A DNA stretch of 64,000 nucleotides from an uncultured archaeon (GTDB lineage: Archaea; Aenigmatarchaeota; Aenigmatarchaeia; CG10238-14): positions 8,262 through 72,261 of the forward strand of contig CAYJVB010000001.1 in NCBI GenBank assembly GCA_964373575.1. Direction: 5' to 3'. The notes below the pieces were generated by a model. It saw only the letters and a list, made by a program, of their open reading frames with translations, did no database searches and was not told the origin of the DNA. Shown piece after piece: positions 4,285-47,235 of the stretch. Each line of letters begins with the position of its first letter. Position 1 is the first letter of the stretch. The translations under genes were made by a program, and so were the position numbers.

Positions 4285-4372
4285 ACCTCTTTGTTCAGCC
4301 CATCTCCTATATACGGGATCTTAGAAGATCTTTCCATCAGGAATTAAGGCAATATGATTCGGAATAACTAAA

Positions 4373-22864: not shown

Positions 22865-24319
22865 CTAAACGCTCTTCAACAAACTATATTTTTCCTTGAG
22901 CACCATAATCCTAGTTATCTTTTCTTTTATCAACTCTTTTGAAATTTCTCCAGAATTAATCATAGATACAATAGTCGAATATGCCGCATTAGCATTAGAA
23001 GAAGAGCTAAACAACAGTATATCAACATTTGTCGCAGCCCTTTTTACCATTTCTTCAAATGTTATTCCTAAATGTGTATTTTTGCCTGTAAGCGAATCTG
23101 ATATTAACACAGCATTTGGTGATATTTGTCTAGCCCGGTTTGTTAATGTGGGTGAAAAAACAGCTAAATTATTAGGATCAATATTTGTGTAAACTATGTT
23201 ATTCATCATTATCATATCCAAATCATTTGACAATCCAGCATAAGGTTTTATATCACTATTTTCCAAATCCTGCATAGTTCTGCTATCTGTTGCTTTCTGA
23301 AAATCACTATTGTCCATCTGATTCCCATAACCTGGGAAATGTTTTCCTGTAGCTATGACACCCTCATCATGAAGACCTTTAGCAAAAGCCCTGCCTATAG
23401 TCTCAACATTTGCAGGATTTCCGGAAAAAGATCTTTCTTGATTATATATTAATCCAGACAAGGATACATCCAACACAGGCGCAAGATTGGTATTTAGATT
23501 ATGTTGTTTCATTTCTATTGCGATATCCTTCGCATGATTCTCAATATCTAATATACTCATAGTTCCAGATGTATACCTACTTCCAATATCCCTCGCAGAA
23601 ATTCTTCCAGGATTAAAATCTTTAGGCATTCTTCTAACCAATCCACCTTCTCCATCTGTAGCAACAAAAGGCCATATCTGCACATTGTTTATTACAGTAG
23701 GTATAGGAGAGAAACCGGCTTGTATATTAGAAGCAAACAAATAATAATTTTTATATTTCGTTCCATCAGGTGTAGACATTATCATTTGTTCCACCAATTG
23801 CTCAGTAGTCATTCCATTAACCAGATTAACAGCTAATGAAGGGATAGTTGTTGTAGTTGTAGCAACTGGAATTGTAGTAGTCGTTTCTTCAGTTGGTAAA
23901 GTAGTTGTTGTACTTTTTTTTATCACCTCTTCAGAGAATAATAAAACCTTTCTTTCATACCCATCATATCTTACTTTAATTTGGTATTGTTTGTTCGCAT
24001 CAATTTTTTTGAATTTAATATCCACAAAATCTCTTTTCACTTTTTCTAAATCCTGTTCTATGCCCTTGTCAGTCGAAATAGCTTTAATGACAAAACAGTC
24101 ATCTACAATGCTATCGCTACCAGAATTATGCTTACTCCAGCACAAGTTAGAGCATGTTACAAGATTCTGTACTATTAGCTCTGAGGCCGTATTCTGATCC
24201 AGGTAACATATCTTTGGAACCGTCTGCCAACTAATAGTAATCAAAACAATAACTGTGAATATTGGAACAACAATAAGCAATAACCCAACAACATTTTTTT
24301 CAACAGACAACAGCACCAC
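22865..24319 (-). CDS. Membrane-anchored glycoside hydrolase family 3 (NagZ-like beta-N-acetylglucosaminidase) behind a poly-Thr linker
   Basis: N-terminal TM. Linker TTTTLPTEETTTTIPVATTTTTIPS. GH3 N-domain motifs NLAPVLDV, KHFPGYGN...DSR and VLISDSL (compare NagZ: PVLDL, KHFPGHG..DSH, SDDL). Confidence 0.55.
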   Translation of the reverse strand: MVLLSVEKNVVGLLLIVVPIFTVIVLITISWQTVPKICYLDQNTASELIVQNLVTCSNLCWSKHNSGSDSIVDDCFVIKAISTDKGIEQDLEKVKRDFVDIKFKKIDANKQYQIKVRYDGYERKVLLFSEEVIKKSTTTTLPTEETTTTIPVATTTTTIPSLAVNLVNGMTTEQLVEQMIMSTPDGTKYKNYYLFASNIQAGFSPIPTVINNVQIWPFVATDGEGGLVRRMPKDFNPGRISARDIGSRYTSGTMSILDIENHAKDIAIEMKQHNLNTNLAPVLDVSLSGLIYNQERSFSGNPANVETIGRAFAKGLHDEGVIATGKHFPGYGNQMDNSDFQKATDSRTMQDLENSDIKPYAGLSNDLDMIMMNNIVYTNIDPNNLAVFSPTLTNRARQISPNAVLISDSLTGKNTHLGITFEEMVKRAATNVDILLFSSSSNANAAYSTIVSMINSGEISKELIKEKITRIMVLKEKYSLLKSV

Positions 24320-26345
24320 CCGAACCAGTGACTATAGGAATTATCAATTGTTGGAATGCAATCAATGCTATAACACTAACAGCGCCATAAACCATCATCC
24401 CAGTCATGAGACTCTTCGCTATTAAATAATTTCTTGAAGTTTCATCAAACCCATTCTCAATCCCATTAAGCAATATTGAAAAAATAGTAATGATCTCCAC
24501 AGTATAAATTCCAATAATTATTTGCAACACGGTCATAGGCATTACTTGCGTAAAATTCCCAACAAGGTCATTCAGAATGCTTCCAACACTAGCTGTTGCA
24601 CTTTGAACAAATGCTACACTAAAAGATCTTTCAATCTGTTGCAACTGGCACGAAAGTGTCCTCAGCATATTAAGAAAAAATATACCCAAAACTCCTGTCA
24701 TGGCACAAACAAGTGGCACAACAAAGGTACTCTCCAGTCTAGCACTCGCCCTTACATCCTCCAGCAATTCTTTTATCTTAGCTTCAATATTGTTTAAATT
24801 TTCCAGATACGATCCGATTGTCTTAGCAACATTTCCTAATAGAACAGAACTTTTTGATGAGGCATCACCCAAGATCCTCATTATCTCTTCAATAAGAACC
24901 GAGGGAAAAAATCTAATCAATCCATCTTTGCCAAAAATTGCATTCATAAAATCCGTGCCTAGGTTTTTCATTTTGTTATACAGTTGCGAAAAGAAATTGT
25001 AAGTGGGATTCTTCTGTAGCCCTAGTTTTTCATATTCATCCAAGCTCTTCTCAATACCCTTTTCAATAGGATAACCCTCAGAGAGGAAATTGCCTAAAGT
25101 ATACAAACCCAACTGGAAATCATTTTCAATGCCCTTTATCTGATTTCTGATATTAATTCTAGGAGCACTTTTCATGTAGAAATACAAAAAGAAGAATACT
25201 GCAACGCCGAATGTCACAGAAAATGTAGAGACCAAATTTTCCAGACTAAACTCAGCCTCCTTTTTCAGCATATCAAGCTTCACTCCTTCACTGGCCACCG
25301 ATAAGTTAGAATACAGATCAACAAAATGCAGGACACCATAAACCATTATCAGCAACGACACTACAACAGCAGCAGGCGCAATTGGTATCAAAACAGTTTT
25401 TGTAGATAACCTCAACGGATATCTATTTGTCGGAGGTAGTTGTGGATGTTTGGAAATATCCGGAACCATAAATGCAGATGGTCTCTTGAGTATTATCCTG
25501 TTTACAAGAAACAGCAGCAGCAAAGGCAGTACAACTGTATAACCAATTCCTAAATAAAATGGATTAATAGAGTTATGCAGAAACATTGAAATCAAGGGAA
25601 ACATTATTATTCCCATAACAGGCAGCAGTATTCCAAGAAAATACAAAATATTGATAGGCCCGTTAATATCCTCAACATAAGTCTTCATCTTCCTTTCCGT
25701 GCTTGTCAATAGAAAGTTAAGTGATTTCATCAAAATCCTTTCCCTCTCACCCTCGGATGGTTCAACCAGAATATTGTACAAAAGCGTAATCGATCTTACA
25801 AAATCCTCATTCCACACCCTCCACTTGGCCATATAAACTGCTAGCGCATCCTCAATTGTGTTATATCTCCCTATCTGCAGATCCCACATTACCTTTTTTA
25901 TATCCTTTGACAACGGCCCTTTAGAATGAGCTGCAGCAAAATTCATTGCGCCTTCAAAATTCGGATGCAGTTTAAGGTAGATTACCATATAGAGAATGAT
26001 CTTTATTGATTCGTCGCCTGTTTGTATTCTCAGTACTTGAGACATGAATCTCGGATAAGTGAATACCAGATAGCTTGTAATGGCTGGGATAAGAAGAAGA
26101 AACGGCAATGCACGCAAGTTATTTGCTATCAATGCAAAACTAGCGAATGCTATCGAAAGCAACAAGAATGTTAAAATTGTGGCTGATACAACACCTCTTG
26201 TGGAAACATTGAGTGTTGAAAATACAATATCCTCTTTCAACTGTCTACTTGATTTCTTCGGTAGATCGAGACCCAACACCTCACTATATCTACACAGCTT
26301 CTCAAAACCACTCTTAGCTTCCTTCGCTTCCTTCTCTTGAAACAA
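24300..26345 (-). CDS. TadC/FlaJ/GspF-like polytopic membrane platform protein of a type IV pilus-like system (paralog 1)
   Basis: 681 aa. Cytoplasmic helical domains alternate with TM clusters. Region-by-region similarity to the 39151..41196 protein (VMWDLQIGRYNTIEDALAVYMAKWRVWNEDFVRSI versus ILWDVHTRRYSSVEEALQDFGDKWKVQNEEFTRSL). Architecture matches the T2SS-F / archaeal FlaJ family. Confidence 0.6.
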   Translation of the reverse strand: MFQEKEAKEAKSGFEKLCRYSEVLGLDLPKKSSRQLKEDIVFSTLNVSTRGVVSATILTFLLLSIAFASFALIANNLRALPFLLLIPAITSYLVFTYPRFMSQVLRIQTGDESIKIILYMVIYLKLHPNFEGAMNFAAAHSKGPLSKDIKKVMWDLQIGRYNTIEDALAVYMAKWRVWNEDFVRSITLLYNILVEPSEGERERILMKSLNFLLTSTERKMKTYVEDINGPINILYFLGILLPVMGIIMFPLISMFLHNSINPFYLGIGYTVVLPLLLLFLVNRIILKRPSAFMVPDISKHPQLPPTNRYPLRLSTKTVLIPIAPAAVVVSLLIMVYGVLHFVDLYSNLSVASEGVKLDMLKKEAEFSLENLVSTFSVTFGVAVFFFLYFYMKSAPRINIRNQIKGIENDFQLGLYTLGNFLSEGYPIEKGIEKSLDEYEKLGLQKNPTYNFFSQLYNKMKNLGTDFMNAIFGKDGLIRFFPSVLIEEIMRILGDASSKSSVLLGNVAKTIGSYLENLNNIEAKIKELLEDVRASARLESTFVVPLVCAMTGVLGIFFLNMLRTLSCQLQQIERSFSVAFVQSATASVGSILNDLVGNFTQVMPMTVLQIIIGIYTVEIITIFSILLNGIENGFDETSRNYLIAKSLMTGMMVYGAVSVIALIAFQQLIIPIVTGSGGAVVC

Positions 26346-26442: not shown

Positions 26443-27330
26443 ATGTCCAATTATCGTCTGCTTATACTTTTGGCAGTAATAATCTTTCTTTCAGGCTGCA
26501 CTACTCAGAACGGTGGGCAAACTTATAATAATGAAGTTATAAAAGTTGATGTTGAGGCCCCGCAAAAAGTTTTGCCAAATCAAAACATAGACATAACATT
26601 ATCAATATCAAACACTAACGCAAATCCAGTTTCAAATCTAGATGTTGTAATGACAGATACTTATGGCCTAGATATTGCAAGCATAAATTGCGATCGTGGT
26701 ACAAAAATAGACGGTGGTTGTCATTTCGATTCAGTTGCTGGCTTTGAAAATTTAAGAATAAACTATAAAACCGGAGTACCTAGCACATACGTCACAGGCG
26801 CTACAAGCGTTCAAGTAAATCCAGAAATAACAATAACTTATGATTATTCCGGGCAGACAGTATGGACTATACCGATAGTGAAAAAGAATTACGCGGGCAC
26901 TATTAGCACAAAGCCGCCCACGTCAACTGCAGGTCCGATACAGGCTACTATACAACGAGGCTTAGACGAGAGTAGTCAAGAACAAACCGATAGATTAGCG
27001 GAAGACGGCTATCTATTCATTACCATAACATTAAATGACGCATTAGGCAATCCTATAACAATAACCAAAGATAATTTATGGGTAAAACTCATCAATTTAG
27101 ATATAGACAAAAGTACTAGTGAAAATGTCTGTGATTTTCAGGGAACTCCTGTTAAACTAACTCCTTTAAAAGATGTAGTAATTCCATATGACCCAACATT
27201 AGAATGTGGTTTGCGGGCTAAAAGTGTATTGCAAGAAGATCTAGAAAACGCCCAAATTGAGGTTAATTTCAACTATCAATACAAAATAATCAAAAATACA
27301 CCAATGGAAATTCTTGCTAGAAAGAGATGA
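26443..27330 (+). CDS. Putative lipoprotein / surface protein with CARDB-like beta domains
   Basis: Signal peptide with a lipobox-like LSGC (MSNYRLLILLAVIIFLSGCTTQNGG). DITLSISNTNANPVSNLDVVM is a CARDB-like strand pattern. Confidence 0.45.
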   Translation: MSNYRLLILLAVIIFLSGCTTQNGGQTYNNEVIKVDVEAPQKVLPNQNIDITLSISNTNANPVSNLDVVMTDTYGLDIASINCDRGTKIDGGCHFDSVAGFENLRINYKTGVPSTYVTGATSVQVNPEITITYDYSGQTVWTIPIVKKNYAGTISTKPPTSTAGPIQATIQRGLDESSQEQTDRLAEDGYLFITITLNDALGNPITITKDNLWVKLINLDIDKSTSENVCDFQGTPVKLTPLKDVVIPYDPTLECGLRAKSVLQEDLENAQIEVNFNYQYKIIKNTPMEILARKR

Positions 27331-29885
27331 ATATCGTGATAAAAATAATTTTTCAAACACCAACATCAGATCCACCAAAAGATAAACCCGATTCACCAAA
27401 ACCAGAAGAACCAACAAAAGAAGAACCAAAATCAACAAAACCATCAATTGACTGGAGAACTATAATAATTTTTTTATCATCATTAGCAGTAGCAGGTTCA
27501 ACAGTATTTGCAATCTATTATTTCAAACTCATTACCATATTTCTAGATCCCACATTAGTGATGATCGCTTATGGACTGATTTTTCTCACTATTTTTTTTG
27601 GTATAATGGCTTTGTTCAATATTAGTTTCGCAAAGAAAATTTTAATATTGGTAATAGTAGCAGATATTATTTTTGCTTCTTTTTTCATCTTTGTAAGTAC
27701 TGCTTTTGGAAAGGAAGCTGCAGCATCTGCAATATTCTTCTTCAAAAAAGCCACAAAAGACATCGGTAAAAGTTTTTGTTACCTAAAGCCAGAAAACATT
27801 GCTACTGGCGATTATTCTGATTGTCGGGAAGATGAAGTTGAAAAGGAAGGAGAGTATGAAAGCTTAATGGTGGAGTTTGGTACAAAAGAAGGCAATAATT
27901 TAATACCAATATTAAAACCTGAAAAAGGAGAACCCTACACTTTAGATCTAACTTTGTCTAATGTCAATTCTCAGCAAGATATTGTTGTCAAATCCATTAC
28001 CGCATACGCTTCTGTAACACCCTTATCCGCTTTAAATGATCCAGAAAGATTGTCACTCACCAAAACAGAATATCTCGACGAATTTACATTGAAAGCCGGA
28101 AAACAGCAATGGTTAAGAATTAACTTTGATTCAATACCTGAATGTACTAGTTTAATATATTTCCTTACTAGAACAACAACTTTGCAAAAAGGCGGAGGAA
28201 TTTCATACTTCAGAATAATTCCAACACGTCAGGGCTTAGATGAGAAATATTTTGATACTAAATACACTCTACCATCAACAAAAACTGATGCAGGACCCGT
28301 CGATGCTTACGCCTTTGTCTATTCAACACTTCCTAAATTAATAGTAATGGACGAATTACAAGGAAATAGTTTCGATGTAATAATAAAAGTTGCAAACTTA
28401 TTCAAAAAAGGTGTTGCGGGTGTTAAATCTTTAAACTTATCAACGACTTTTGATTATATCACCATCGACAAATGTTCATCGCCAAAAATTCCTGATATAG
28501 AACTCACAAAATGTTCAGAGCAGGAGCAAGAAAACTGCGTTAAGATGAATTTAGAACAGGAAGAAAATTTAGACATCGCTGATACTCTTGAAATCGACTG
28601 CAAGGCAACAATCGATTCTTCAAAATATGATGAGAATGCAGTCACCGGTTGGATTCGTGTATCAACAGAATATGAACATTCAATAGATTCGGAAGATTTC
28701 CCAAGAAAGGCAGTATGTAATAATCCTACAATAATAGGAGGATCCTTTGGTACAGGCGGATGTCCAGAAAACCAGTGCCTGTTGGACAGACCTTCTAAAA
28801 ACAATGTTCAATATCCTTCATGTGGTAATAAAATTATAGTTGAAGGGACAGATCCAACAAAACCAGATTCATGTGACAGCCCGAAAAATATTTACAACTT
28901 CATACACGATAATTCAAAAACAGCATTGGATCCTTATGATGTAGATAATCCACAGCTCAAATCAGAAATAGAAAGTCAACTTACAACAACTAACTTTTTA
29001 GGTTTATCCGTTCGCATTAACAACAAGGTAGTTCCTAAATTAGCAGAAGTTGAAAACATAATTAACTCTAAATATTCGCATAGCGGTACAACATATGAAT
29101 TCCCAAGCGGTACATATACTTTCAAAAATAGCGGTAGCTACAATTTCAGGACAAATGTTAATAACCCAAGCGTTTTGAGTTCTCATTCTTTTGGTACAGC
29201 ATTGGATTTGAATGCAGAAACAAACTGGGGCAATCTTGCTGGTTACTCATGTCAATTTGATATTCCTCCTGAATTAGTTGAGGCGTTCGAATCTATAGGT
29301 TTCAGATGGGGAGGTAGATATTGGCCTCAGTTAGATCCAATGCATTTTGAGTATATACCAAGTTGTATCTCTACGTCGTCAAGTTCTACTGGAGATAATA
29401 CAATTTTAGCAAAATGTCCGAGCCAAGATGAAATAAAACAAAAAATTGCAAGCACAGCAAAATCTATTGGCGTACCAGTAGATATAATGTTAGCAGTATC
29501 TGAAGTTGAATCAGGCTTCTCGCATTGCGATGCATATGGTAATGTAAAAATAGGAAGAGCAGCAGGAGAAGTAGGTTTATTTCAAGTAACACCCGGAACT
29601 GCTGGTTGTTCTAAAGAATATCTTAGAGATCCAAATAACAATATCGAATGTGGTGTTAAAGTTTTCAAAGGAAAACATGATGCTTATTATCCATCAAATA
29701 GCAATGGCGATAAAACAGATCCAAATGATGTAGACTACGATCCTCTTAATTGCGGTTATTACTATCCCGATGAATGGGACAGAGCTATTAGAGGTTATAA
29801 TGGATGGGGCTGTCCTTACGAATCAAATAAAAATTATGTGAATTTAGTTAAAGATCGAGTGCCAAAATACAGCAGTTATAATTAA
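27327..29885 (+). CDS. Membrane-anchored bifunctional murein hydrolase: VanY/M15-type D-Ala-D-Ala (or L-Ala-D-Glu) peptidase domain plus a lytic transglycosylase (SLT) domain
   Basis: Pro/Lys/Glu-rich N-terminus, then about 4 TM helices. M15 motifs SHSFGTALDLNAE and DPMHFEY (~29170..29350). SLT motifs SEVESGFS ... GLFQVTPGTAG (~29440..29700). Confidence 0.6.
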   Translation: MNIVIKIIFQTPTSDPPKDKPDSPKPEEPTKEEPKSTKPSIDWRTIIIFLSSLAVAGSTVFAIYYFKLITIFLDPTLVMIAYGLIFLTIFFGIMALFNISFAKKILILVIVADIIFASFFIFVSTAFGKEAAASAIFFFKKATKDIGKSFCYLKPENIATGDYSDCREDEVEKEGEYESLMVEFGTKEGNNLIPILKPEKGEPYTLDLTLSNVNSQQDIVVKSITAYASVTPLSALNDPERLSLTKTEYLDEFTLKAGKQQWLRINFDSIPECTSLIYFLTRTTTLQKGGGISYFRIIPTRQGLDEKYFDTKYTLPSTKTDAGPVDAYAFVYSTLPKLIVMDELQGNSFDVIIKVANLFKKGVAGVKSLNLSTTFDYITIDKCSSPKIPDIELTKCSEQEQENCVKMNLEQEENLDIADTLEIDCKATIDSSKYDENAVTGWIRVSTEYEHSIDSEDFPRKAVCNNPTIIGGSFGTGGCPENQCLLDRPSKNNVQYPSCGNKIIVEGTDPTKPDSCDSPKNIYNFIHDNSKTALDPYDVDNPQLKSEIESQLTTTNFLGLSVRINNKVVPKLAEVENIINSKYSHSGTTYEFPSGTYTFKNSGSYNFRTNVNNPSVLSSHSFGTALDLNAETNWGNLAGYSCQFDIPPELVEAFESIGFRWGGRYWPQLDPMHFEYIPSCISTSSSSTGDNTILAKCPSQDEIKQKIASTAKSIGVPVDIMLAVSEVESGFSHCDAYGNVKIGRAAGEVGLFQVTPGTAGCSKEYLRDPNNNIECGVKVFKGKHDAYYPSNSNGDKTDPNDVDYDPLNCGYYYPDEWDRAIRGYNGWGCPYESNKNYVNLVKDRVPKYSSYN

Positions 29886-33604: not shown

Positions 33605-33763
33605 TTAAAATATGTTTTCCAAACCCTTCTTAATGGTTTCTATAACTTTTGTGATTAAGTCGGGTGCAGATTTTGACAAAATAAACAGCGTTACAACTAG
33701 TAAAACTAAAAACACTATCCCAACAACTAATAAAACTAGAATTTTTTGGCTTTCTTCTGGCAT
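33605..33763 (-). CDS. Small membrane protein of 52 aa (MPEESQKILVLLVVGIVFLVLLVVTLFILSKSAPDLITKVIETIKKGLENIF). It is the first gene of the pilin operon and is not in the ORF track.
   Basis: Clean ATG...TAA ORF on the minus strand with a single TM helix. The plus-strand ORF 33612..33821 over the same DNA looks less plausible. Confidence 0.3.
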   Translation of the reverse strand: MPEESQKILVLLVVGIVFLVLLVVTLFILSKSAPDLITKVIETIKKGLENIF

Positions 33764-33789
33764 TGTACTAGCCCACCACATCTATCATT

Positions 33790-33905
33790 CTATCTCTAAA
33801 GTATACTTCACTTGGAGTTAAATATCCTAGTGCTTGATTCTTTTGTAATTGTAATATGTCACAAATCCATTCAATGTCTTGAATTTGTTGTCTTCTTCTT
33901 CATAA
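33790..33905 (-). pseudogene. Remnant of an integrase/transposase (rve-type DDE) C-terminus; degraded mobile-element scar
   Basis: The minus-strand frame translates to ELVKKIVIRWYRTYEEEDNKFKTLNGFVTYYNYKRIKH*. This resembles the conserved C-terminal FN..L..FI.YYN..R.H tail of IS3/IS481/retroviral-type integrases, but it is bounded by stops and no full ORF exists. Confidence 0.3.
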
Positions 33906-34142
33906 GTCCTATACCATCTGATGACGATTTTTTTCACTAATTCTTAAATGACTAGCAATCGTATAATTAGTCTACCATCAATTTTCTTTTCATAATCAAT
34001 CTTCTCTATCTTAATTCTCTACCCACAATATCGCCCCCTGTTTAATTGTTATAATAGGAGTGACTTATGTTATAGGACAGCACAAAATTTTCATGAACCC
34101 AATAAACTTAAATAATAATATGAGCCATTCTTTTTGATATAA

Positions 34143-34529
34143 ATGTTTCAAGATCCAAAAACAAGAGAATATATAAAAATTGAACCAAATTTGCTTTATA
34201 GAACTGATGAAGCAGCTGCTTTTTTAAAAGTTGAACCTGGTACAGTCAGGGTTATGATAAGAGATGGAAGATTAGATGCCACATATTTAGGAAGATATCG
34301 TGTTTTAGGTCAAACTTTATTGAATATGACAGAATATGCTCCTCCGATAGATGTTCTATATACTCCAGAAGAAGTCGCCGCATATCTAAGATACAGAACA
34401 CGTACTATACATGCTATGATAAGAAATGGGAGATTGAAAGCAGTTGATATTTCAGGAGGCGGAAAACCTCGTTATAGAGTCTGGAAAAAAGACATTCAAG
34501 CATTATTAACCAATTATTCAGTTAAATAA
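34143..34529 (+). CDS. Protein with two tandem excisionase-family (HTH_17/MerR-like) DNA-binding domains
   Basis: Internal repeat: AAAFLKVEPGTVRVMIRDGRLDATYLGRYRV versus VAAYLRYRTRTIHAMIRNGRLKAVDISGGGKPRYRV. This is the pattern of Xis / helix-turn-helix_17 domains. Confidence 0.5.
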   Translation: MFQDPKTREYIKIEPNLLYRTDEAAAFLKVEPGTVRVMIRDGRLDATYLGRYRVLGQTLLNMTEYAPPIDVLYTPEEVAAYLRYRTRTIHAMIRNGRLKAVDISGGGKPRYRVWKKDIQALLTNYSVK

Positions 34530-34557
34530 TAAAAAGCAAAAGAAACCTCTTATATTT

Positions 34558-35166
34558 TCAATACCGTCTATATTTTTCTTTAAGTTTCGTAAATTTATCA
34601 TCTTTTTTCTTTAGTCTCCAAACATAAATAACAACAGCACTTACAATCCCAACAATTGAAAATATAATGAGAGTTTTCATGTTACCGGGTTTTATAATTG
34701 TTGTGGTAGTCGTTATAGATACACATTCTTTCGGGCAAATAAGTTCAGATTCTCCCCTATCAGATTCACAAATATTATTCTCATTGCAGATGTAACCCGA
34801 AAGCTCAACCTCTTTTATAACCGTATCATTATGCAAAAATCTGATAGTTCTATATTCATCATTCCACGGTATTCTATGATACGCTCGCGAATAATTCACT
34901 TCACCAACTTCAAACTTATAGAAAACGACAGGAATCGTCAACGCCACTAAAGTGTTATTTCCTTCTCCTCTAATAAATAACTGATACTCCTCCGTTCCAG
35001 GTGTATAAAATACTGTTCCATTAGAATATTTTATATCAACTATCTCAATAGAATCATCTATGTATATAACATAATTCAAAATCAAAATCGGTTCTGCATA
35101 TGATATTTGTAACAAAAACAACAAACTAAATAGCAGACTAACAAAAACAATGATAAATTTAGTCAC
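34558..35166 (-). CDS. Secreted protein with a C-terminal TM anchor (202 aa); function unknown
   Basis: Sec signal MTKFIIVFVSLLFSLLFLLQISYA. C-terminal TTTTIIKPGNMKTLIIFSIVGIVSAVVIYVWRLKKKDDK. Confidence 0.45.
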   Translation of the reverse strand: MTKFIIVFVSLLFSLLFLLQISYAEPILILNYVIYIDDSIEIVDIKYSNGTVFYTPGTEEYQLFIRGEGNNTLVALTIPVVFYKFEVGEVNYSRAYHRIPWNDEYRTIRFLHNDTVIKEVELSGYICNENNICESDRGESELICPKECVSITTTTTIIKPGNMKTLIIFSIVGIVSAVVIYVWRLKKKDDKFTKLKEKYRRY

Positions 35167-37642
35167 AATAACCAGCCTCTCTAATTCTTACCAATATAGA
35201 ATTATAACCTTCCGAGCCAAATTTAACCGGATTTCCCACCATAATATAATTACCTTGACTATCTCTATACATATTTCCCCCACCACCCATTATATCTGTA
35301 TCATATGGTGGAGAGTTACCACCTATTTTCTTTCCACATGTTCCAAGATCGCAAGCAGTGTTATCAACACTGCAATCTGTATCACATTTATCATCTGGAC
35401 CTATTCCATTATCTAATGGATATGGGTTCCCACAACTAGAAAAAGGTTGAGATTCTTTCAGAATACCAAAATTCTTAAAACGAACATTTTGTCCTTCCCA
35501 AGTAAATCTATCATATTCATCGCATAACTTAAATTTATGTCCAATTTCATGCGCAGGACAAGTTCTATCAAGACCTTCAGGTAAACCACCGAAGCACATA
35601 GCAAAAGGTAACACCATATCTGCAAACCCATTTACTATAGGATCATCACTAAGTGCAAATACTAAATCATGATCATTTAAACCCATATTTTCAACACACT
35701 GTAAAACTTCTTGTTCGCAAATGTCCCATGTAGAATCATAATCACTTAAATCGGGGCATTGACAATTCTGATCTAAAATCCTTATGTCAATTCCATTTCT
35801 GCATTCTCTGAAAGGAGATTCTTCCAAAAATGTATTCATCCTATCTTGAGCTCTTTTTCTATATGCATTCATGTCGTCATAATTCACAGCAACAACATAA
35901 ATTCTATAACGATTAGCTAATTTTATTATATTTCCAGTATATTCAGCTTTATTAGAGTTACCCGCCTTATCGCCAGCAATTGTTACAAGTTTGTATTCCC
36001 CCACTCGGTTCAATATAAAGGAGCCAGTACAACTTACAAGGAAACTTACTCTATTATGACCTATTGATGCAGCTAAATCCAAACTATCACAATCTAGATC
36101 TTGACTATAATACCGAGCTCCATTTTGTTCTATGTACATTTCTATAGAATCTTTATCAAGGTTCACATCTTCATCATAGATTAGAGCTTTAGCAATAATA
36201 GGCGAGTTTGTGTAACCAAAAGTTGGTATAGTATACGCATCTATGACAGGCAAGTTATCGTCCGGTAATATTGTAACAGAAGTTTCAATATTATTTTCCT
36301 TTGTAGTTTCAAATCCAGACTGACTTCTGCAGGAAATGTAGTATTTTTTCTCTTCCACCATTCCATTGTTTAGGCCAAAACATAGTATATAATCCGAAAA
36401 TGTTGTTGTATTAGGGTATAAATTATCTTGAGTGACGAGATTGAAATTATCATAATTGGGGCAATCCAAAGTCATCTCATCGAAATTTAGATCTCTATCC
36501 GATATCCTACAAATTGAATTTTCTGAAGGAATAACCCGAATCATAGGATTTAATTGTTTTGTGCTGGAAGGACTATCAATAGATGCAAAACATTTAACAT
36601 CGGGTTTATTATCATATGTAATCTCTTCTTCACAAACTGGACAACTTTTTGTTGTCAAGACATTATAAGTACAAGATTTGTCAGAAGCAAAACACCCATA
36701 AAGCCTTCTTTCTGCTGTATAATCATTGGCACAAAACCACCCATTACTAGATGTACATGATTCAGGACACGAAATTATTTCTCTGTCTTTACACCCAGGA
36801 TATTCAGATAGGTCATAATCATAATAAGCTGGATTATCTTGCCAACTTATTTTATCATCGTCATTCAAATCACAATCATATGGAAAACAGTTATCTGCTC
36901 CTGAGTCATAAGTATCGTCAAATATGTTATAATCTAACTTATCCCTTATACCATCCACATTTATATCAGGACAAGCACCTATAGGACAATTTGAGAATTC
37001 TGAAGCCAATTTTCCTAAGTTATCTTCAACCCATTGACGGTCTTCTTCATCTACAATTCCATTATTATCAAAATCACAATCAGTTACCCATGCAGCAGCA
37101 CAATACGACTCCCCTAAACTATATCTAAGATCATCAACATCTTTCTGATCTATTAACCCATCTCTATTTCCGTCAGGACAATCAAATTCCAATTTTGGTT
37201 CAATAGTTAGACTTATAACATTACTCTCAAAATCAAGCTTCTCTTCTCTTACGTTGTATCCTCCAACAAGTCTAAGCTGATAATCACCACTTTCTTTTAT
37301 ACAGTCTGAAATTCTGAATTCTCCCTTTATGGCTCTTTCTCCTTTGACAATCACGAAATCTCCAATTTTATAAATTTTACAAAATTTCCATTCTTCATTA
37401 GAACTTGCCTTTCTATACTGAACTCCAAGCTGATAATCTTTTTCTGCCAAAAAAGCTTCAATTCTGTCAGTGAAATCAAATTCAAAAGTAAAAAAATCTT
37501 TCAGACTACCTTTTGTTCTTAACCCAAGAGTTGGTTCTGCAGCTTGCAGTGTATCTAATAGAATAACTGTTACAAGAATCGTAGCTAACAACACAACACA
37601 AAATTTTGTTTTATTCACGTAATCCTCCTCTAAATGTTTCAA
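35159..37642 (-). CDS. Secreted zinc metalloprotease (HExxH) with multiple Ca2+-binding Dx[DN]xDG (thrombospondin-type-3/dockerin-like) repeats
   Basis: Signal peptide. Repeats DCPDGNRDGLIDQKDVDD, DCDFDNNGIVDEED and CPDINVDGIRDKLD. C-terminal HEIGHKFKLCDEYD zincin motif. Confidence 0.55.
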   Translation of the reverse strand: MKHLEEDYVNKTKFCVVLLATILVTVILLDTLQAAEPTLGLRTKGSLKDFFTFEFDFTDRIEAFLAEKDYQLGVQYRKASSNEEWKFCKIYKIGDFVIVKGERAIKGEFRISDCIKESGDYQLRLVGGYNVREEKLDFESNVISLTIEPKLEFDCPDGNRDGLIDQKDVDDLRYSLGESYCAAAWVTDCDFDNNGIVDEEDRQWVEDNLGKLASEFSNCPIGACPDINVDGIRDKLDYNIFDDTYDSGADNCFPYDCDLNDDDKISWQDNPAYYDYDLSEYPGCKDREIISCPESCTSSNGWFCANDYTAERRLYGCFASDKSCTYNVLTTKSCPVCEEEITYDNKPDVKCFASIDSPSSTKQLNPMIRVIPSENSICRISDRDLNFDEMTLDCPNYDNFNLVTQDNLYPNTTTFSDYILCFGLNNGMVEEKKYYISCRSQSGFETTKENNIETSVTILPDDNLPVIDAYTIPTFGYTNSPIIAKALIYDEDVNLDKDSIEMYIEQNGARYYSQDLDCDSLDLAASIGHNRVSFLVSCTGSFILNRVGEYKLVTIAGDKAGNSNKAEYTGNIIKLANRYRIYVVAVNYDDMNAYRKRAQDRMNTFLEESPFRECRNGIDIRILDQNCQCPDLSDYDSTWDICEQEVLQCVENMGLNDHDLVFALSDDPIVNGFADMVLPFAMCFGGLPEGLDRTCPAHEIGHKFKLCDEYDRFTWEGQNVRFKNFGILKESQPFSSCGNPYPLDNGIGPDDKCDTDCSVDNTACDLGTCGKKIGGNSPPYDTDIMGGGGNMYRDSQGNYIMVGNPVKFGSEGYNSILVRIREAGYCD

Positions 37643-38663
37643 CTAGTTCTGAACCAAGTTTAGTAACTACAAAAGTAAATGGAAATGTGACAAGATCATC
37701 AGTTTTCTTAGGTAATAGAGCAGTTGTTATTTTATATTTGCTATCGCAAAATGTCATCTCCATATCACTATCGCTCGAACAAAATTCTTTTTGTTCCGGA
37801 ACTGGTTTATTTCCACATTTAAAATTGAGTTTAATCAAATAATCTTCTGAATTCGTGCAACCGTCGGGATAGACATCTTTTATTAAAACGCCATCATTCA
37901 GCCCTAAAGGATAAAATTCATTTAATTTTAAATTCATAGTTTTTTCAACATTCTGTTCAATATTTCTATCAGAATAAAAATCAAAAACTATTAATGATTC
38001 ATCAACGTTAGTTACAAAAGTTATAGGAATTGACTCTTCAATGAATTTTTGTTTTATTGCATCATAATAAAATGGGTTTGAATCACCAGATATTAATATA
38101 GTCTCCGACCCTCTTATTTTTACACCTTCTACACCACATTGAGACGGATCACTTCCATACTCATCAGTAACAATATTGTCAGTTACTACTATCGTATTTG
38201 GCTGAAGTAATCCTTTAAACATATTAGATAGAGCCAGATAATCAAGTGCGCCAGCAGTAGACGTTTCAATACATTGATAATTTTCTCCTAAATTGGATTT
38301 TTCAATCCATGAATCCTTATTGTCTAATTGCACGATTATAGGAAACTGAAATCCACAAATCCTATCACTACCAATAAAATTAATTATTTCAGGATTGCAA
38401 TAATTGCTACATCTAAAATCAGAAGCGTCATCTTTTATATTTTTTACTTCATCACTATCACACCCATAATAACATCTGGCCATAACACACTGAGCTGCTA
38501 GTTCTGCAACACTCGTTCCCTGAAAGCATTTAAATGGGTCTTCTTTAACACAGGGATTATTTCCTAAAATTGATAAAAAAGCAACTAAAGCAAGAATTAC
38601 AAAAACAGCAACTAGAAAATACATAACTAACTTGCTTGTACCTATATCAGAATTTCCTTTCAT
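37611..38663 (-). CDS. Membrane-anchored/secreted Cys-rich protein (350 aa)
   Basis: MKGNSDIGTSKLVMYFLVAVFVILALVAFLSILG N-terminal anchor and about 16 Cys. Its ATG overlaps the stop of the upstream micro-ORF (ATGA). Confidence 0.4.
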   Translation of the reverse strand: MKGNSDIGTSKLVMYFLVAVFVILALVAFLSILGNNPCVKEDPFKCFQGTSVAELAAQCVMARCYYGCDSDEVKNIKDDASDFRCSNYCNPEIINFIGSDRICGFQFPIIVQLDNKDSWIEKSNLGENYQCIETSTAGALDYLALSNMFKGLLQPNTIVVTDNIVTDEYGSDPSQCGVEGVKIRGSETILISGDSNPFYYDAIKQKFIEESIPITFVTNVDESLIVFDFYSDRNIEQNVEKTMNLKLNEFYPLGLNDGVLIKDVYPDGCTNSEDYLIKLNFKCGNKPVPEQKEFCSSDSDMEMTFCDSKYKITTALLPKKTDDLVTFPFTFVVTKLGSELVETFRGGLRE

Positions 38664-39150: not shown

Positions 39151-41196
39151 CTAGACACCAATATCTGAAATCAAGCGTCCTAGAACAAAGAATATAATCA
39201 ATACAGTAGCTGTAAATATCAATGCACCTCTCATCAAGCTTGTAGCTATAGAATATTGAATTTCTATATTGTCATCTCCCTTTTCAATTCTAACCGAAAA
39301 AACGCTAAGAGAAATCAGAACTTCTATCATATAAATACCAACAACTATCACAAAAATTTCTAGCGGCATTATGTTTTCAATCGATAAAGGTAAATTTTTG
39401 ACATCTTCTATAGGAAAAGATTTGAATAAATCGCTAATATAAATCAAAATTCTTACTAATATTCCACCTAGTCCAACAACAGCTCCAGCAGCCAATGGCA
39501 CTAGAACTATTGACATAATCTTCATCGATGAGATAACATCCTCCAAAATATCTTTCAAATTCTGGCTTACAGTTTGAATTCCTTTCAAATAATCCGAAAC
39601 AGCTATCAACGTCGTCGCAGCAATACCCATTCCTTTTGTCGTCGACTCAACAGTTATCCTCATCGTATTCTTAATCAAAGCCGACGGGTATTCATTTATC
39701 AACCCAACATCTTTATTGAACACAGCTTCTTTAAGAGTCAGTCCCATTTGCGATATCCTGTACAACAATTTCTCGAAAAACACATGAATCTTCTCATTCT
39801 TCACCTTTTCAGTAACTTTCTTTAATGAGTTCTCCAATGGCTGTCCCGATCTTAAAACAGTTCCAAGAATGAACATAGCATCCCCAAAATCTCTCTCAAC
39901 ACCCTCAATTTCTTCTTTGATTTTTTTATTTTTGTTGCTTGAAAAGAAAGTGTAAAACACAATAGCAATTATTAAACCCCAAAAAATACCTAACGAAGCA
40001 AACAACTTATCGTCAAGAGTTATACCTTCACTGGGATTAAATAAAGTCACCAATCCAAAACTTGATACCAATAAGAAAAACATTGCAGCAATAGGAACTA
40101 ACGGAATCTCTATCTTATTTTTACCAATAAATATAGCAGCATTCCCCGGTTTTGCAGCTTGAGGATGATTATATATATCGGGAACATAAAATCCATACGG
40201 CCTCTTCTCCAACTGATTTTTCATTAACCACAAAACAAGAAACGGCAGTATCAAATCATATAAACCAACAAGCACATATATCTTTGCCGTCTTCCCCAGA
40301 ACCAGCGTGACAATAGGAAACAAAATCAATGTTATAACAGGCAATAAAATCCCTAGCGCATGTATAGTTGTTATTGGCGCCTTCAACTCTCTAGAATATT
40401 CCTTCATCCTCTCCAAATTCGATTCAAGTATGAGTTTTACAGCATTATCAATAGTTTTATCTCTATTAACAGGTTCTAACAAAGAAGTTGTTAACATATC
40501 TAATGATCTAGTAAACTCTTCATTCTGAACCTTCCACTTATCTCCAAAATCTTGCAACGCCTCCTCAACACTAGAATATCTCCTAGTATGAACATCCCAC
40601 AGAATCTTTCTCAAATCCTTCCCTACAGCCCCAGGTAAATTAACAGCAGCGAACGTAACAGCATTTTCTAAATTAGGCGTATTCCTCAAGCCAATTGCAA
40701 TATACAAAACCGCAAGAACAAGTTCAGATGAAGCCCCCACTCTTACCTTTTTAGAATAGCTATTAGGATACGTCAGCAAGTAATATGAAAATGCAAAACC
40801 AACCATTGATTCCAGCAACAAATACGGTAGTATTTTCCCAAACGTTATTCCAGCTGATAAAATAAAAAACAACCCCGCCGATAGAAACATTGCAATTACT
40901 GTAGCTATCAATCCAAAAACAAAAGTTGAATAAACAGTATAAGGTTCTACATTAAGATTAGAAAAATTCAGTTTAGCATACAAATCTTTTTCTTTCTCAT
41001 CACTTATTTTTATCCTAATTAAATTTCCAGAAAATGCACACAATTTCTCATACCAATTTCTTTTCTCAGATTCTGTTTTGATGTATTCTAAAAAATCCTG
41101 TGACAGTCTTTTCCCAACAACATTGACAAAATCATCGTATAACTTGTCTAATTCTCTCTTCATCCTAACCACGTATTTGCCTTCTAAGCCAGTCAT
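39151..41196 (-). CDS. TadC/FlaJ/GspF-like membrane platform protein (paralog 2), immediately downstream of the ATPase
   Basis: 681 aa, the same length and domain order as the 24300..26345 protein. It overlaps the ATPase gene by 32 nt. Confidence 0.6.
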   Translation of the reverse strand: MTGLEGKYVVRMKRELDKLYDDFVNVVGKRLSQDFLEYIKTESEKRNWYEKLCAFSGNLIRIKISDEKEKDLYAKLNFSNLNVEPYTVYSTFVFGLIATVIAMFLSAGLFFILSAGITFGKILPYLLLESMVGFAFSYYLLTYPNSYSKKVRVGASSELVLAVLYIAIGLRNTPNLENAVTFAAVNLPGAVGKDLRKILWDVHTRRYSSVEEALQDFGDKWKVQNEEFTRSLDMLTTSLLEPVNRDKTIDNAVKLILESNLERMKEYSRELKAPITTIHALGILLPVITLILFPIVTLVLGKTAKIYVLVGLYDLILPFLVLWLMKNQLEKRPYGFYVPDIYNHPQAAKPGNAAIFIGKNKIEIPLVPIAAMFFLLVSSFGLVTLFNPSEGITLDDKLFASLGIFWGLIIAIVFYTFFSSNKNKKIKEEIEGVERDFGDAMFILGTVLRSGQPLENSLKKVTEKVKNEKIHVFFEKLLYRISQMGLTLKEAVFNKDVGLINEYPSALIKNTMRITVESTTKGMGIAATTLIAVSDYLKGIQTVSQNLKDILEDVISSMKIMSIVLVPLAAGAVVGLGGILVRILIYISDLFKSFPIEDVKNLPLSIENIMPLEIFVIVVGIYMIEVLISLSVFSVRIEKGDDNIEIQYSIATSLMRGALIFTATVLIIFFVLGRLISDIGV

Positions 41197-44100
41197 CCCA
41201 TCTATTGAAAATTTCTTCTGGATTCAAAACGCCATAATCCCTTTTTACATCATCCGAAATGAGGTGAAACATTTCGTTGCTCAATGAAACCCACTCAGCT
41301 TCTAATATATCCTTTCTATCAAGCCTGTTAGCATAATCCACCATCGTCTGCTTCATCTTTGCCCTCAACTCAATATTATCCCAAACAGCCTCCCAGTTGC
41401 CATGCCAATCTCTAACCCTTTTCGCAATCTCATTAACAACAAGCGATTCTCCATTAAGCAATGTTCCAGTTGGTTTCAACTCATCATCTTTAGCCGAATA
41501 TTCCATCAAAGTAACAAAACCCTTTTCATCCATAGGGTCACTCTTCCAATGTTTCCTCACTTCAGCAACTTCAAGTATTCTTCTATATCTATGCAGGCCA
41601 TCCCCAGATTTTATCATTCCTGAAATAACAATTACGTCAATTGCTTTGAAACTTGTCGCTGTCACACCCAAATCATTTACAACTCTATCAAAAACACCGT
41701 ATGGCGACTCTCCATGTATAGTTCCAGCGACAACATTGGATAACGCACCAATCCTCATCGCCTCAAACAAAGCTCTAGCTTCAGTATTATGCAACAATAT
41801 ACCACCAAACCCACCAACAAAATTTTCACTAGGATTAACTGATAAATCATAAACAAATTCACTCTTTTCTAGCTCTATTTCTTTGATTTCGACTATTTCG
41901 TCAAGGAAGAAATCTCCCCCTGCAAAATTCTTTAGTCTTCCTGACGTTTGACATTCTTTATCATTCACTACTCTCTCCAAATATTTCTTGCTGCATTTTT
42001 CAAAACGGAACAAATGTCTATATTTTCTAGGATATCTAGTAAGATGTTTTTTCAGTTCAATTTTATCGAAATATACCATATTAACCTTTGTGTGTTCCCA
42101 TCCCGCTTCAATCATTACAGGATCATATTTAGTAAAACCAACCTCTTTTAAAAATATTTTGACCATTTTCCTATCTTTAAATTCAACTGTCCATAAAGGT
42201 TTTCTGCTTTTTTTATTTCTTATTTCTTTAATTCTAGCAACTATTCCAAAAACAAGAAGTAGATATAACAGATCCTCAGCAAGCAACTTCGAAGTTGTGT
42301 AATATCTTACTGCATTTCCAGACCTTATAGATTTTGTGAAATTTCCGTCACCGCTATAAAGCCCACGTAAAAATGCCGCTATTTTCTTTCGGTTTAATCC
42401 AAAAATCAGTGGTGGAATTCTTTTATCGCCTGAAGTTCTGCCACATTCCAACTTTGATAAAAATGTTGATAACGGAGATGAGAATAAATGAACTTGAGTT
42501 GATTTACCCCAACCAGTGATCGATCTGAAAGACGGCTTGATATTGAAGGTTTTATTCGAAATATCTACAATTTCTTGAATTATTTCTGGATTAGAATTTG
42601 TTATTACAACACGGCCACCCCTACCTTCAGTCAAATCATAATAACCTTCTGCTACATAATAACCCAAAAATTTACAAAAATCTTCATTAACAGAAATCAC
42701 AGCAGGTATTGGGTTGCCGGTGCCACGGGTTATCATTAATTCTTCAGGTTCATAAAATGTATTTGTAGCCTTCATCAATTGAACAAAATTGTGAACCGGT
42801 ATGTTTGTTTTCTGGGCTCTGAAATAATTATAAATATCACCAGAAGTAACCTTACAGATTTCAGTAGCTTTTTTCCACCCAACTTTTTGAATACTTCTTC
42901 TTACAGCATCTTCAAAATTTTTTAATCTAAATTCCGGTAATATATCAATTAAATTTAGATCATCTATATCATTGAATCCACAAAGCATCTTAGAGGGTAT
43001 AACTACCTGATTACCAGGTTTAAGTTTATCACATTCTATCGCTGCAATTCTAAAATCTTTAGTAGCAGTAAATAAACTATGGTCAGGAGTAACTGTGACC
43101 TTCCTACCAGTTTTTGTTGTTATTTCAATAAGTTTTTTCCTTGGTGGGTGTTTAACAAAGTCTGCTAAGGGCCTTATATTCATTTTCAGATTGAAATCGA
43201 GAGTAGGCACATTGTAATTTTTGATCCCCCTGTTTTCCAAATCTTTTATCTTAACTCTTTTTGTAACATTATTTTCTATCACTAAAACTTCTTGATCCCC
43301 TCTAATAGAACTTCTCACCTCACCAACAATCAAACAAGAATCACCCAATCTCAACGCAGTTCTTAATGCATCATCTGCCGGCAACTCGGATTCAATTCTT
43401 GTAATAACAGATCGCGACTTCATCCTTTCGATATTATATCCTATGTCTCTTAGTTGTGTTATAGGTAATTCAAGCGTGTCCTCTAGGCTAATTACACGAA
43501 ACTTTTTCATCATTTCCAACATAGTCGCTCCTAGCAGTGATGATTTACCACTCGATCTTCCACCTGCAAACAAAATAGTCCTCGAACCGTCAACAAGAAA
43601 ACTCATCAATCCAGCAAACATCGAATTCATATATTTCGTGTTCATAAACAATGGATAAGTCCATGGTCTATCTCTATGCCTTCTCAATGCATATGCCAAT
43701 CCTTCTGGACTTAATGTCCTTGTAATAGCACCAACCCTAGCCCTCCCGCCAGGTACAAACAACTCAGTATCAAGAACAGGATTTGCCTCATCTAACGGTC
43801 TTCCAGAAAGCAGTCTGAACCTCGTAGCCCAACTCTCAGCATCCTCCCTTGTCGGTATTAAATTAGTCTCGCACTCTTCATAATCGTCATGCAATACATA
43901 AACCGGCGTGATCCCTATAGGCGAATTTATGTAAATATCTTGCAACTTGGTATCACTCAGCAACAATTCCAATATCCCAAATCCTGCAGTATATCTAACA
44001 AGTATATTCACCATCTCTTCCAGTTCCTTCGGTGTATATTGATTTTTTGCAGCCATCTGATTAATCATATCCTTTCCAATATTCAGGAAAATTTCCCTCG

Positions 44101-44963: not shown

Positions 44964-45365
44964 TTGGTTGTTATGGTATTCGACAAAAAACCTGATGAAG
45001 GAGGTTTTCAAACAGAACTTGTGAGAAGAATCAACGACGGCACAAGAAGGATAAGAATGATAGAGCAGAACATAGATGTTCTCAATCTTAAAATAATAGG
45101 GATAGAAGAGAGAGTGATCAGTGACATGGAATCATTGAAAAAAAATTTTGATCAACTTTTTTTAGACATTCAAGAAATAACAAAAACTATGAACGAGCTT
45201 AGAGGAGAAATTCTTAAGATTAACAAAAATTTGGACAAGACAGCAAAAAAAACAGAAGTCAAAGAGTTGGAAGGTCTTCTAGATTTGTACAATCCAGTAA
45301 AATCAACATTTGTTACAAGAGAAGAATTGGAAAGACTACTGGAAGAAAAAATTAGCAAGAGATAA
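44964..45365 (+). CDS. Coiled-coil protein (133 aa), divergent from the ATPase operon
   Basis: Heptad-rich Lys/Glu sequence with no TM. Confidence 0.35.
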   Translation: MVVMVFDKKPDEGGFQTELVRRINDGTRRIRMIEQNIDVLNLKIIGIEERVISDMESLKKNFDQLFLDIQEITKTMNELRGEILKINKNLDKTAKKTEVKELEGLLDLYNPVKSTFVTREELERLLEEKISKR

Positions 45366-45413
45366 TAAATATAAGTTAAGTCAATTCTATTATATTAATT
45401 AAGGTGCCTTCAA

Positions 45414-46106: not shown

Positions 46107-46139
46107 AATTATTTATTGATAGACTAACAAATTGGTAAT

Positions 46140-46649
46140 ATGGTTAGTCCGTTTGAAGCAGCAGCTCAAAAAATAGCAGAACTCGGTTTTTTTAATTTCG
46201 TGGTACCATTTCTTATTACAGGTGCAGTCTTCTACGGCTTATTAAAAAAATCTGGTTTCTTTTCTTTTGGTGTAAATGCAACCCTTTCAATATCAGTATC
46301 ATTCTTGATTTGGGGTTTCTTGGTTGCATCACCCGGAGTAGAATTAGGAACGGCGTTTTCTAAATTTTTTACTCAAATATCAGTCATAATATTATTGTTC
46401 CTATTTTCGATTGTCGGCGCGAGTATGTTCTTCCCTGATTTTAATGAAGCTTTGAAAGCGGCCTTCCCCGGCGGGTCATTTATGTGGGTATTTTTCGCAA
46501 TTTTTTTGATAATATTTTTTGTATCTAGCGGTTTAGGTGATATATCAGGTTTACCACTTTTTTTTGGAGGTCCTGGAGGTATAATGATATTAATTTTATT
46601 TCTATTATTCATAGGTGTATTGATAGCAACACTTGTTGCAAGACAATAA
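46140..46649 (+). CDS. Polytopic small membrane protein; member 1 of a tandem triplicated family
   Basis: Shared N-terminal signature ELGFFNFVVPFLITGAVFYGLLKKSGFF, then 4-5 TM segments. Confidence 0.5.
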   Translation: MVSPFEAAAQKIAELGFFNFVVPFLITGAVFYGLLKKSGFFSFGVNATLSISVSFLIWGFLVASPGVELGTAFSKFFTQISVIILLFLFSIVGASMFFPDFNEALKAAFPGGSFMWVFFAIFLIIFFVSSGLGDISGLPLFFGGPGGIMILILFLLFIGVLIATLVARQ

Positions 46650-46658
46650 GGTGAAAAA

Positions 46659-47234: not shown

Positions 47235-47235
47235 A

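Follow-up and report, generated by a model that had tools for sequence, protein, structure and literature searches.

Insertion sequences of the IS3 family are already known from archaea, where they have been reported in 20 of the 20 phyla surveyed (PMC13343696), and proteins carrying several HTH_17 domains are likewise already known, so that the locus described here holds nothing unexpected in kind. The rve-type DDE transposases of IS3 and IS481 elements carry a family C-terminal signature, YYN-x2-R-x-HQ-x-LGY-x-TP-x-EVY. Among DNA-binding proteins with the excisionase-type winged-helix fold, the closest described systems are of three sorts. BldC of Streptomyces (PDB 6AMA and 6AMK) is a single-domain, 68-aa bacterial regulator of MerR/Xis-like type that binds direct repeats as head-to-tail dimers or multimers (PMC5859096). 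The excisionases of phages and ICEs, such as mycobacteriophage Pukovnik Xis and Tn916 Xis, are also single-domain proteins. Finally, TraN of the Enterococcus plasmid pIP501 (PDB 4P0Y) represses a type IV secretion operon; its folds are Xis/MerR-like, and it is a single chain of ∼120 aa with two winged-helix halves, encoded in the operon under its control (PMC10877727).

Here we examine a pilus locus in which both a transposase remnant and a tandem winged-helix gene are found. The window, by which we mean the whole 64-kb stretch of DNA that was analysed, comes from an Aenigmarchaeota (DPANN) archaeon. Its archaeal origin is evident from housekeeping genes, namely those for geranylgeranyl reductase, TYW2/Trm5 methyltransferase, ADP-forming acyl-CoA synthetase, and a TP_methylase-domain protein that looks like diphthine synthase; the closest homologues of its intein-containing pilus ATPase are named Aenigmarchaeota, the two nearest being 81% and 77% identical. 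DPANN archaea are thought to make contact with their hosts through pili and surface proteins, and lineage-specific additions and regulatory rewiring at a pilus locus may therefore bear on host range.

For the synteny comparison we used five related loci (L001/L002, L003, L007, L008, and L009), the only relatives with long contigs. All five share one gene order, consisting of ATPase, TadC, small pilins, a gene of 320–460 aa, a gene for a membrane protein of ∼50–60 aa, a pilin, and five more genes, and in each of them the pilus genes lie contiguously on a single strand and are followed by a cell-wall hydrolase gene in the opposite orientation. The window's ORFs of 350, 58, 100, 229, 152, 278, 158, and 302 aa have homologues in the same order in these relatives by tblastn. 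Its HTH, 202-aa, and 827-aa ORFs have none in the five, and an HTH_17 gene, an rve gene, and an 800-aa gene are absent from every one of the loci.

The first-pass annotation had placed a mobile-element junction between a pilin operon and an ATPase/TadC-2 operon, and had suggested that at least one half of this surface island arrived on, or was rearranged by, an integrative element. The mobile-element junction stands, but the two supposed operons are a single operon in all five related loci. Since the halves form one contiguous, same-strand operon in the relatives, neither half came on a mobile element; both are syntenic there and alike in composition, and neither an integrase, in the ORFs scanned between 22.8 and 47.8 kb, nor the att repeats that an integrative element might have brought were found. 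Judged by these alignments, it is instead the 3.9-kb block between the halves that is foreign DNA. The picture of an imported island is replaced by one of a conserved Aenigmarchaeota pilus operon split by a 3.9-kb insertion, which adds a protease-like surface cassette together with a DNA-binding protein that is an orphan. Our preferred reading, which we hold to be probable, is that the locus is the scar of an old insertion, associated with an IS of the IS3/IS481 type, that split the pilus operon. What the analysis contributes is this revised view of the island, together with the localization of a lineage-specific addition at the pilus locus of a DPANN archaeon; it also documents, as a worked case, an IS3/IS481-type scar in the genome of such an archaeon.

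The whole lineage-specific insertion, delimited by synteny and tblastn, extends over ∼33764–37660 (∼3.9 kb, minus strand; boundaries ±20 bp), at a site that in the relatives is a spacer of only 22–45 bp between two conserved genes. Read in the direction of the operon, it contains an 819–827-aa gene, a 202-aa gene, the HTH gene on the opposite strand, ∼200 bp of AT-rich sequence, and a transposase tail that abuts the next ancestral gene, its reading frame ending 4 nt before ATG 33763. Upstream of the insertion, the conserved genes end with the ancestral 350-aa gene (37611–38663, minus strand). At this right junction the 350-aa protein runs 17 residues beyond the conserved C-terminus of its relatives, and the last 17 codons and the stop codon of the gene lie within inserted DNA. 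The first gene downstream is an ancestral gene for a small single-pass membrane protein (33605–33763, minus strand), which opens the pilin sub-operon reaching 29882. Its true start is ATG 33763, giving 52 aa, rather than position 33781 as in the ORF list, and its product is 41% identical to that of a 52-aa gene of L009 (E 1.6e-5). At this left junction the first 24 nt of the gene are identical to L009 at 21 of 24 positions, similarity being lost upstream; small ORFs homologous to the 52-aa gene occupy the equivalent position in L001, L003, L007, and L008.

Two of the inserted genes form a surface cassette. The first is an 827-aa ORF (35159–37642, minus strand) encoding a secreted Cys/Asp-rich protein with the motif HEIGH (HExxH); its probable real start is GTG 37618, preceded by a GGAGGA ribosome-binding site, which would give 819 aa. 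This protein has no Pfam match, and there is a weak match to M6 metalloproteases at the HExxH motif. The product of the second gene (34558–35166, minus strand), 202 aa long, carries a signal peptide and, at its C-terminus, a membrane anchor. The two-gene cassette is portable, and it recurs once, between pilin-like ORFs in contig L010 of an uncultured archaeon. There, the counterpart of the 827-aa protein is 45% identical over the C-terminal 267 aa, and the next ORF after this protease-like gene, of 192 aa, is 33% identical to the 202-aa protein. L010 was the sole match in a genome scan with the 827-aa protein, a scan among whose results the window's own genome does not appear. The same protein retrieved nothing from viral contigs, and nothing from metagenome contigs with either single-protein or alignment queries; no PHROG matches were obtained for the cassette genes.

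To decide between gain and loss of the block we compared TadC sequences. Identity to the window's TadC is 75.7% for L001 and 71.5% for L003, as against ∼50% for L007, L008, and L009, which on these percentages places the window with L001 and L003 and leaves the ∼50% loci as outgroup. With the block missing from all five relatives and the loci so grouped, parsimony favours one gain over two or three precise losses. The opposite history would make the 827-aa, 202-aa, and HTH genes ancestral and lost in the relatives, and the transposase-like tail either a later, unrelated hit or a resemblance due to chance. It can draw on the host-like composition of the block and on L010, where the only other known copy of the cassette also sits among pilin-like genes, as a normal accessory of such loci might. 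Yet it calls for two or three clean losses, the genes being absent on both sides of the window in the TadC pattern, and for just 22–45 bp to have been left at the site in the relatives. Gain is favoured, and ancestral presence opposed, by three further features of the block itself: one junction coincides exactly with the altered C-terminus of the 350-aa protein and the other with the IS tail, and the HTH gene stands on the opposite strand, where it breaks the operon. We consider ancestral presence followed by loss quite improbable.

Composition does not set the block apart. GC content is 0.330 in the insert, 0.322 and 0.351 in the two halves, and 0.349 in the window; the 4-mer distance of the insert falls at the 91st percentile of same-size windows, and in codon usage the 827- and 202-aa genes stay inside the host range. 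We found no compositional anomaly between the two halves, between the halves and the rest of the window, or between insert and host, and the compositional comparison of the halves that the first-pass annotation had proposed showed no difference. Host-like composition of the insert agrees with the event being old or the donor being related, but gives no positive support for insertion.

At the downstream edge of the insertion lies the decayed 3′ tail of an IS3/IS481-type rve transposase gene (33768–33937, minus strand; ∼45–55 codons), identified by profile and tblastn matches. The minus-strand fragment that the first-pass annotation had translated is present as the ORF 33937–33827 (frame A), with the translation MKKIVIRWYRTYEEEDNKFKTLNGFVTYYNYKRIKH (also written VKKIVIRWYRTYEEEDNKFKTLNGFVTYYNYKRIKH), ending in YYNYKRIKH and a stop codon. 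We have extended it by a second frame that picks up directly from the first (frame B, 33845–33768, minus strand), with the translation KNQALGYLTPSEVYFRDRMIDVVG and its stop codon at 33768–33770, so that after the frameshift the fragment ending in YYNYKRIKH runs on as QALGYLTPSEVYF. A deletion of 1 or 4 nt links the two frames; with the missing nucleotides restored, the peptide reads ...YYNYKR(I)HQALGYLTPSEVYF..., and the joined peptide displays the canonical C-terminal signature of rve-type DDE transposases, YYN..R.HQ.LGY.TP.EVY.

The naive join of the two frames matches Pfam rve_2 (E 1.8e-3) and rve_3 (E 2.3e-3), as well as the NCBIfam models for IS481 (E 3.7e-4, model positions 247–284 of 284) and IS3 (E 2e-3, positions 340–368 of 369). 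A 4-nt repair lowers the IS481 and IS3 values to 3.8e-6 and 8.4e-6, which are optimistic because the consensus guided the repair. All transposase scores of the tail are below the curated family cut-offs, since only ∼45 codons survive, and the almost equal NCBIfam scores mean that IS3 and IS481 are not distinguishable from the fragment. A tblastn search of 7.3 Gb of plasmids with the tail, similar to a check proposed by the first-pass annotation, returned 520 records with a best E of 2e-2, and among the best 25 of these every annotated feature under the match is an IS3-family transposase. Of the annotated matches we inspected two, ISGlo6 and a Treponema IS3 OrfB; both fall at the extreme C-terminus, 15–16 codons before the stop, and the alignment to residues 241–278 of the Treponema OrfB shows 50% identity over 38 aa without gaps. 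A k-mer homologue search with the joined tail gave no candidates, and a PDB sequence search with the tail gave only spurious PhoB matches (E ∼0.6).

These scores leave room for the view that the peptide, in AT-rich non-coding DNA, resembles transposases by chance and that the spacer around it is a plain divergent promoter region: frame A alone and frame B alone have no family match, the joined scores stay under the gathering thresholds, and the best E among the plasmid matches is only 2e-2. Against chance, the two frames meet at one point to give the contiguous signature; the profile matches of the joined tail are limited to rve_2/rve_3 and IS481/IS3 and fall on the last residues of the models; the annotated features under the best 25 plasmid matches are consistently IS3-family transposases; and ISGlo6 OrfB, searched against the whole 64-kb window, matches the tail as its single site (E 0.01). 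Independently of all these, the site is the edge of a demonstrated insertion. Chance similarity thus strikes us as very improbable, and from the matches to family C-termini we conclude that the tail is a genuine, heavily decayed transposase 3′ end, in agreement with the first-pass assignment of the fragment to the tail of an rve-type integrase or transposase.

Compared with IS3/IS481 elements, with which it shares the C-terminal signature, the tail represents only ∼15% of a transposase gene, and the element is dead, without DDE core, orfA, programmed frameshift site, TG...CA repeats, or duplicated target site. The DDE catalytic core (Pfam rve, PF00665) gave no match, and tblastn with two full-length OrfB proteins found nothing upstream of the tail, where remains of orfA were not detected either. 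The putative right end has no TG...CA terminal inverted repeat partner within the window, and the search for a left end stayed at background. We also considered KIVIRWYRTYEEE as the ERFNRTLKEE motif that includes the catalytic E, and rejected it, as the ungapped alignment puts it downstream of that motif.

As for the insertion as a whole, no terminal inverted or direct repeats flank it within the window, and no duplicated target site or direct repeats were found at its junctions. A second IS end and flanking IS copies were not found within the window, which holds a single IS fragment, at one edge of the insertion only; the window likewise contains no further copies of the spacer or the transposase tail, and no paralogues of the inserted genes. 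The marks of a composite transposon or genomic island, that is flanking IS copies or repeats and atypical composition, were accordingly not observed. The IS may have landed beside an insertion made by another route instead of causing it. In either case the mobile-element scar is real but fairly ordinary.

The proposed search for repeats flanking 34.5–44.9 kb brought up only a borderline inverted repeat, 34042–34074 / 45370–45402 (27 of 33 nt), which we rejected as a transposon end and treat as chance. Equal scores were reached by 16 of 300 Markov-shuffled queries (p ∼0.05), its core motif has just two occurrences, which is the chance level, and there is no duplicated target site; its second copy (45370–45402) lies in a 48-bp spacer inside a plus-strand operon.

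The remaining inserted gene (34143–34529, plus strand) is intact and encodes a 128-aa protein with tandem HTH_17/excisionase-type domains at approximately residues 15–64 and 69–127. As the first-pass annotation had proposed from the sequence, it carries two Xis-like HTH domains: PF12728 (HTH_17) matches in two stretches (E 6e-20, 71.7 bits against a cut-off of 27), and so does TIGR01764 (E 1.7e-15, 57.1 bits against a cut-off of 28.8). The PHROG excisionase families 66, 2907, and 7735 match it with E values from 1.8e-12 to 4.5e-10, and it scores below the NCBIfam cut-offs for BldC (NF033787, 27.8 bits against 77) and MamR (NF040990, 43.9 bits against 100). An internal repeat of 21 nt, 90% identical, connects the two recognition-helix regions of the gene.

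By its sequence this protein is an orphan. A k-mer search of 5.8 billion proteins found the protein itself only, exact-sequence look-ups returned no record, and its cluster has one member. With HMMER, the best non-self match among 1.84 billion representative proteins has E 1.2e-8, and there are 55 matches below 1e-3, all of them reflecting the generic domain; some of these matches themselves carry two to four tandem HTH_17 repeats. With no close homologue among those 1.84 billion proteins, and with the gene absent from the five syntenic loci, the protein is not the conserved chromosomal regulator whose discovery would have spoken against a mobile-element junction. The locus adds a tandem HTH_17 architecture without close relatives to those already known.

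An AlphaFold2 model, built on a 16-sequence alignment, predicts two winged-helix domains (mean pLDDT 89, pTM 0.52) joined by a flexible linker (pLDDT 65), so that the relative geometry of the domains is uncertain. The predicted order of strand, helix-turn-helix, beta wing, and C-terminal helix occurs twice. Searched with Foldseek, the predicted domains each superpose on BldC (TM 0.84–0.89, rmsd 1.2–1.3 Å, 26–33% identity), and also on Pukovnik Xis and RacA. The likeness to BldC is structural only, and the protein is not a member of that family; whereas BldC has one domain, here there are two in one chain, and the two fused HTH domains could mimic within that chain the head-to-tail arrangement of BldC.

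TraN offers a parallel in layout, as both proteins combine two winged-helix halves in one chain and both genes lie inside an operon of secretion or pilus type. A whole-chain Foldseek match to TraN has a probability of 0.84–0.87, with an rmsd of ∼13 Å, 10–11% identity, and a query model whose pTM is 0.52. The relative domain orientation in the model does not match, TraN belongs to a bacterial plasmid whereas the present gene is on an archaeal chromosome, and no sequence-level relationship between the two came to light. By analogy with these proteins, the HTH protein is probably a local DNA-binding regulator.

An active role as excisionase is less likely than one as regulator. The resemblance to phage and ICE excisionases consists in a domain family match above threshold and a shared fold (TM 0.74–0.76); the differences are that the domain is here tandemly duplicated instead of single, that no cognate integrase or att sites were found, and that the HTH gene is intact in a locus whose mobility gene has decayed. 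The same evidence bears on another reading of the block, which would make it what is left of a larger integrative element, be it a provirus or an integrated plasmid, with the double-HTH protein as its excisionase and with integrase and att sites lost. Such an origin would account for the matches to TIGR01764 and to the three PHROG families, for the predicted structural resemblance to mycobacteriophage Pukovnik Xis, and for a lineage-specific HTH gene that adjoins a mobile-element scar. It sits poorly with the rest of the locus: no integrase domain is present in the ORFs that were scanned between 22.8 and 47.8 kb, and no tRNA gene or att-like direct repeats were found; the target is an intra-operon spacer of 22–45 bp, which is typical of transposition and not of site-specific integration; the cargo is a surface cassette of pilus-locus type without PHROG matches; and scans of viral contigs were empty. 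Moreover, the HTH gene is intact beside a destroyed transposase, which suggests retention for a host function, and TraN, a solved example of a single-chain tandem protein of this fold, is a repressor. We regard an integrative element as an unlikely source.

Returning to an IS-associated insertion as the preferred reading, we propose the following history. The analysis demonstrates the insertion, its genes, the homology of the tail to transposases, the domain architecture of the HTH protein, and the lack of all of these in the relatives, whereas the order of events is inferred. The ancestral Aenigmarchaeota type IV pilus operon was one unit comprising ATPase, TadC, small pilins, the ∼330-aa gene, the 52-aa gene, a pilin, and five genes. 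In the window's lineage, ∼3.9 kb entered the 22–45-bp spacer between the ∼330-aa gene and the 52-aa gene. Later decay would have removed most of the transposase gene by 5′ deletion, frameshift, and loss of the inverted repeats, while the cargo and HTH genes stayed intact. The operon would now consist of two transcription units, an upstream one from the ATPase to the 202-aa gene and a downstream pilin unit served by a new promoter and ribosome-binding site in the spacer, in or next to the IS-derived tail.

The spacer in question (33782–34142, 361 bp) lies between the ORF-list start at 33781 and the HTH gene, and consists of the transposase tail and the ∼200 bp of AT-rich sequence. It contains no ORF longer than 42 aa, in keeping with the ∼350 bp of otherwise non-coding sequence that had been noted around the fragment; it has no Rfam match, and its predicted RNA fold is unremarkable (z-score −0.1). 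We take it to be a putative divergent promoter region. The motif GGTGGG, 8 nt before ATG 33763 and inside the IS-derived tail, is a candidate ribosome-binding site for the pilin unit. A scan for sigma-70 promoters and hairpin terminators, whose model is not applicable to archaea, gave background levels. As a side observation, TGTTATA occurs at 34047 and 34068, 21 bp apart, a possible operator without statistical support.

By analogy, the HTH protein would hold two BldC/Xis-like winged helices covalently together, as a built-in dimer of the kind seen in TraN of pIP501, and may act on the divergent spacer to control itself, the pilin unit, or both. One can go further and suppose that the IS tail has been co-opted as promoter and ribosome-binding region, and that the HTH protein, having come in with it, gates both the host-attachment pilus and the newly acquired surface protease cassette in an episymbiotic DPANN archaeon. 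To this extended scenario we assign only a small chance; if true, it would represent a domesticated mobile-element module that rewires a conserved cell-surface machine.

The upstream unit probably ends in the gap of 28 bp between the convergent HTH and 202-aa genes (34530–34557). Read directly, the minus strand of this gap contains oligo-T tracts (TTTCTTTTGCTTTTTAT). Oligo-T termination signals are established in archaea, and the gap is therefore a candidate archaeal terminator of the upstream sub-operon.

The gene at 34143-34529 on the plus strand, which encodes two tandem excisionase-type HTH domains, contains a 21-nt direct repeat (34253-34273 and 34415-34435) whose copies are 90% identical, spaced by 162 nt, and encode MIRDGRL in one domain and MIRNGRL in the other; the repeat fits internal tandem duplication of the HTH domain. 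Beside it in the insertion lies a two-gene cassette on the minus strand, comprising a gene for a large secreted protein (35159-37642) and a gene for a membrane-anchored protein of ∼200 aa (34558-35166). The secreted product is Cys-rich and contains DxDxDG repeats that resemble those of dockerins; its C-terminal HEIGH domain is conserved and zinc-protease-like. We found no Pfam family for the cassette, which is rare: we found it on just one further archaeal contig, from an uncultured archaeon (L010, positions 1735-4385), again amid pilin-like genes.

A conserved gene for a single-pass membrane protein of ∼52 aa (33605-33763, minus strand) is flanked in all relatives by the ∼330-aa gene on one side and the pilin gene on the other, among them L009 (8423-8581), L001 (about 15796) and L003 (about 17344); it is present but uncalled in the annotations of L001 and L003. 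Its ORF in the window carries an artificial six-codon extension (MWWAST) that reaches into the IS-derived tail.

The window encodes two TadC/T2SSF-like membrane platform genes (24300-26345 and 39151-41196, both minus strand) as compared to one recognised pilus ATPase gene; the first adjoins a GH3 glycosidase gene (22865-24319). An intein of ∼500 aa containing a LAGLIDADG homing endonuclease splits this T2SSE/FlaI-like ATPase (41165-44914, minus strand) on the C-terminal side of its GEVRS motif. The ATPase of the nearest relative, L001, is intein-free; in L003 and in several homologues at greater distance an intein is again present, apparently at the same position. Divergent from the ATPase gene are five small plus-strand genes (44964-47814), kept in all relatives, none of which has a Pfam family. 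The first two appear to be coiled-coil-rich, judging from weak family matches, and the other three (169, 191, and 211 aa) are mutual paralogues.

Two large secreted proteins of this archaeon combine peptidoglycan-directed domains: SLT with peptidase M14 (11295-13784, minus strand), and peptidase M15_4 with SLT (27327-29885, plus strand). In relatives, the corresponding place next to the pilus operon is taken by M23 or NlpC/P60 enzymes. This pattern is consistent with bacterial-type cell walls as a target of attack or attachment.
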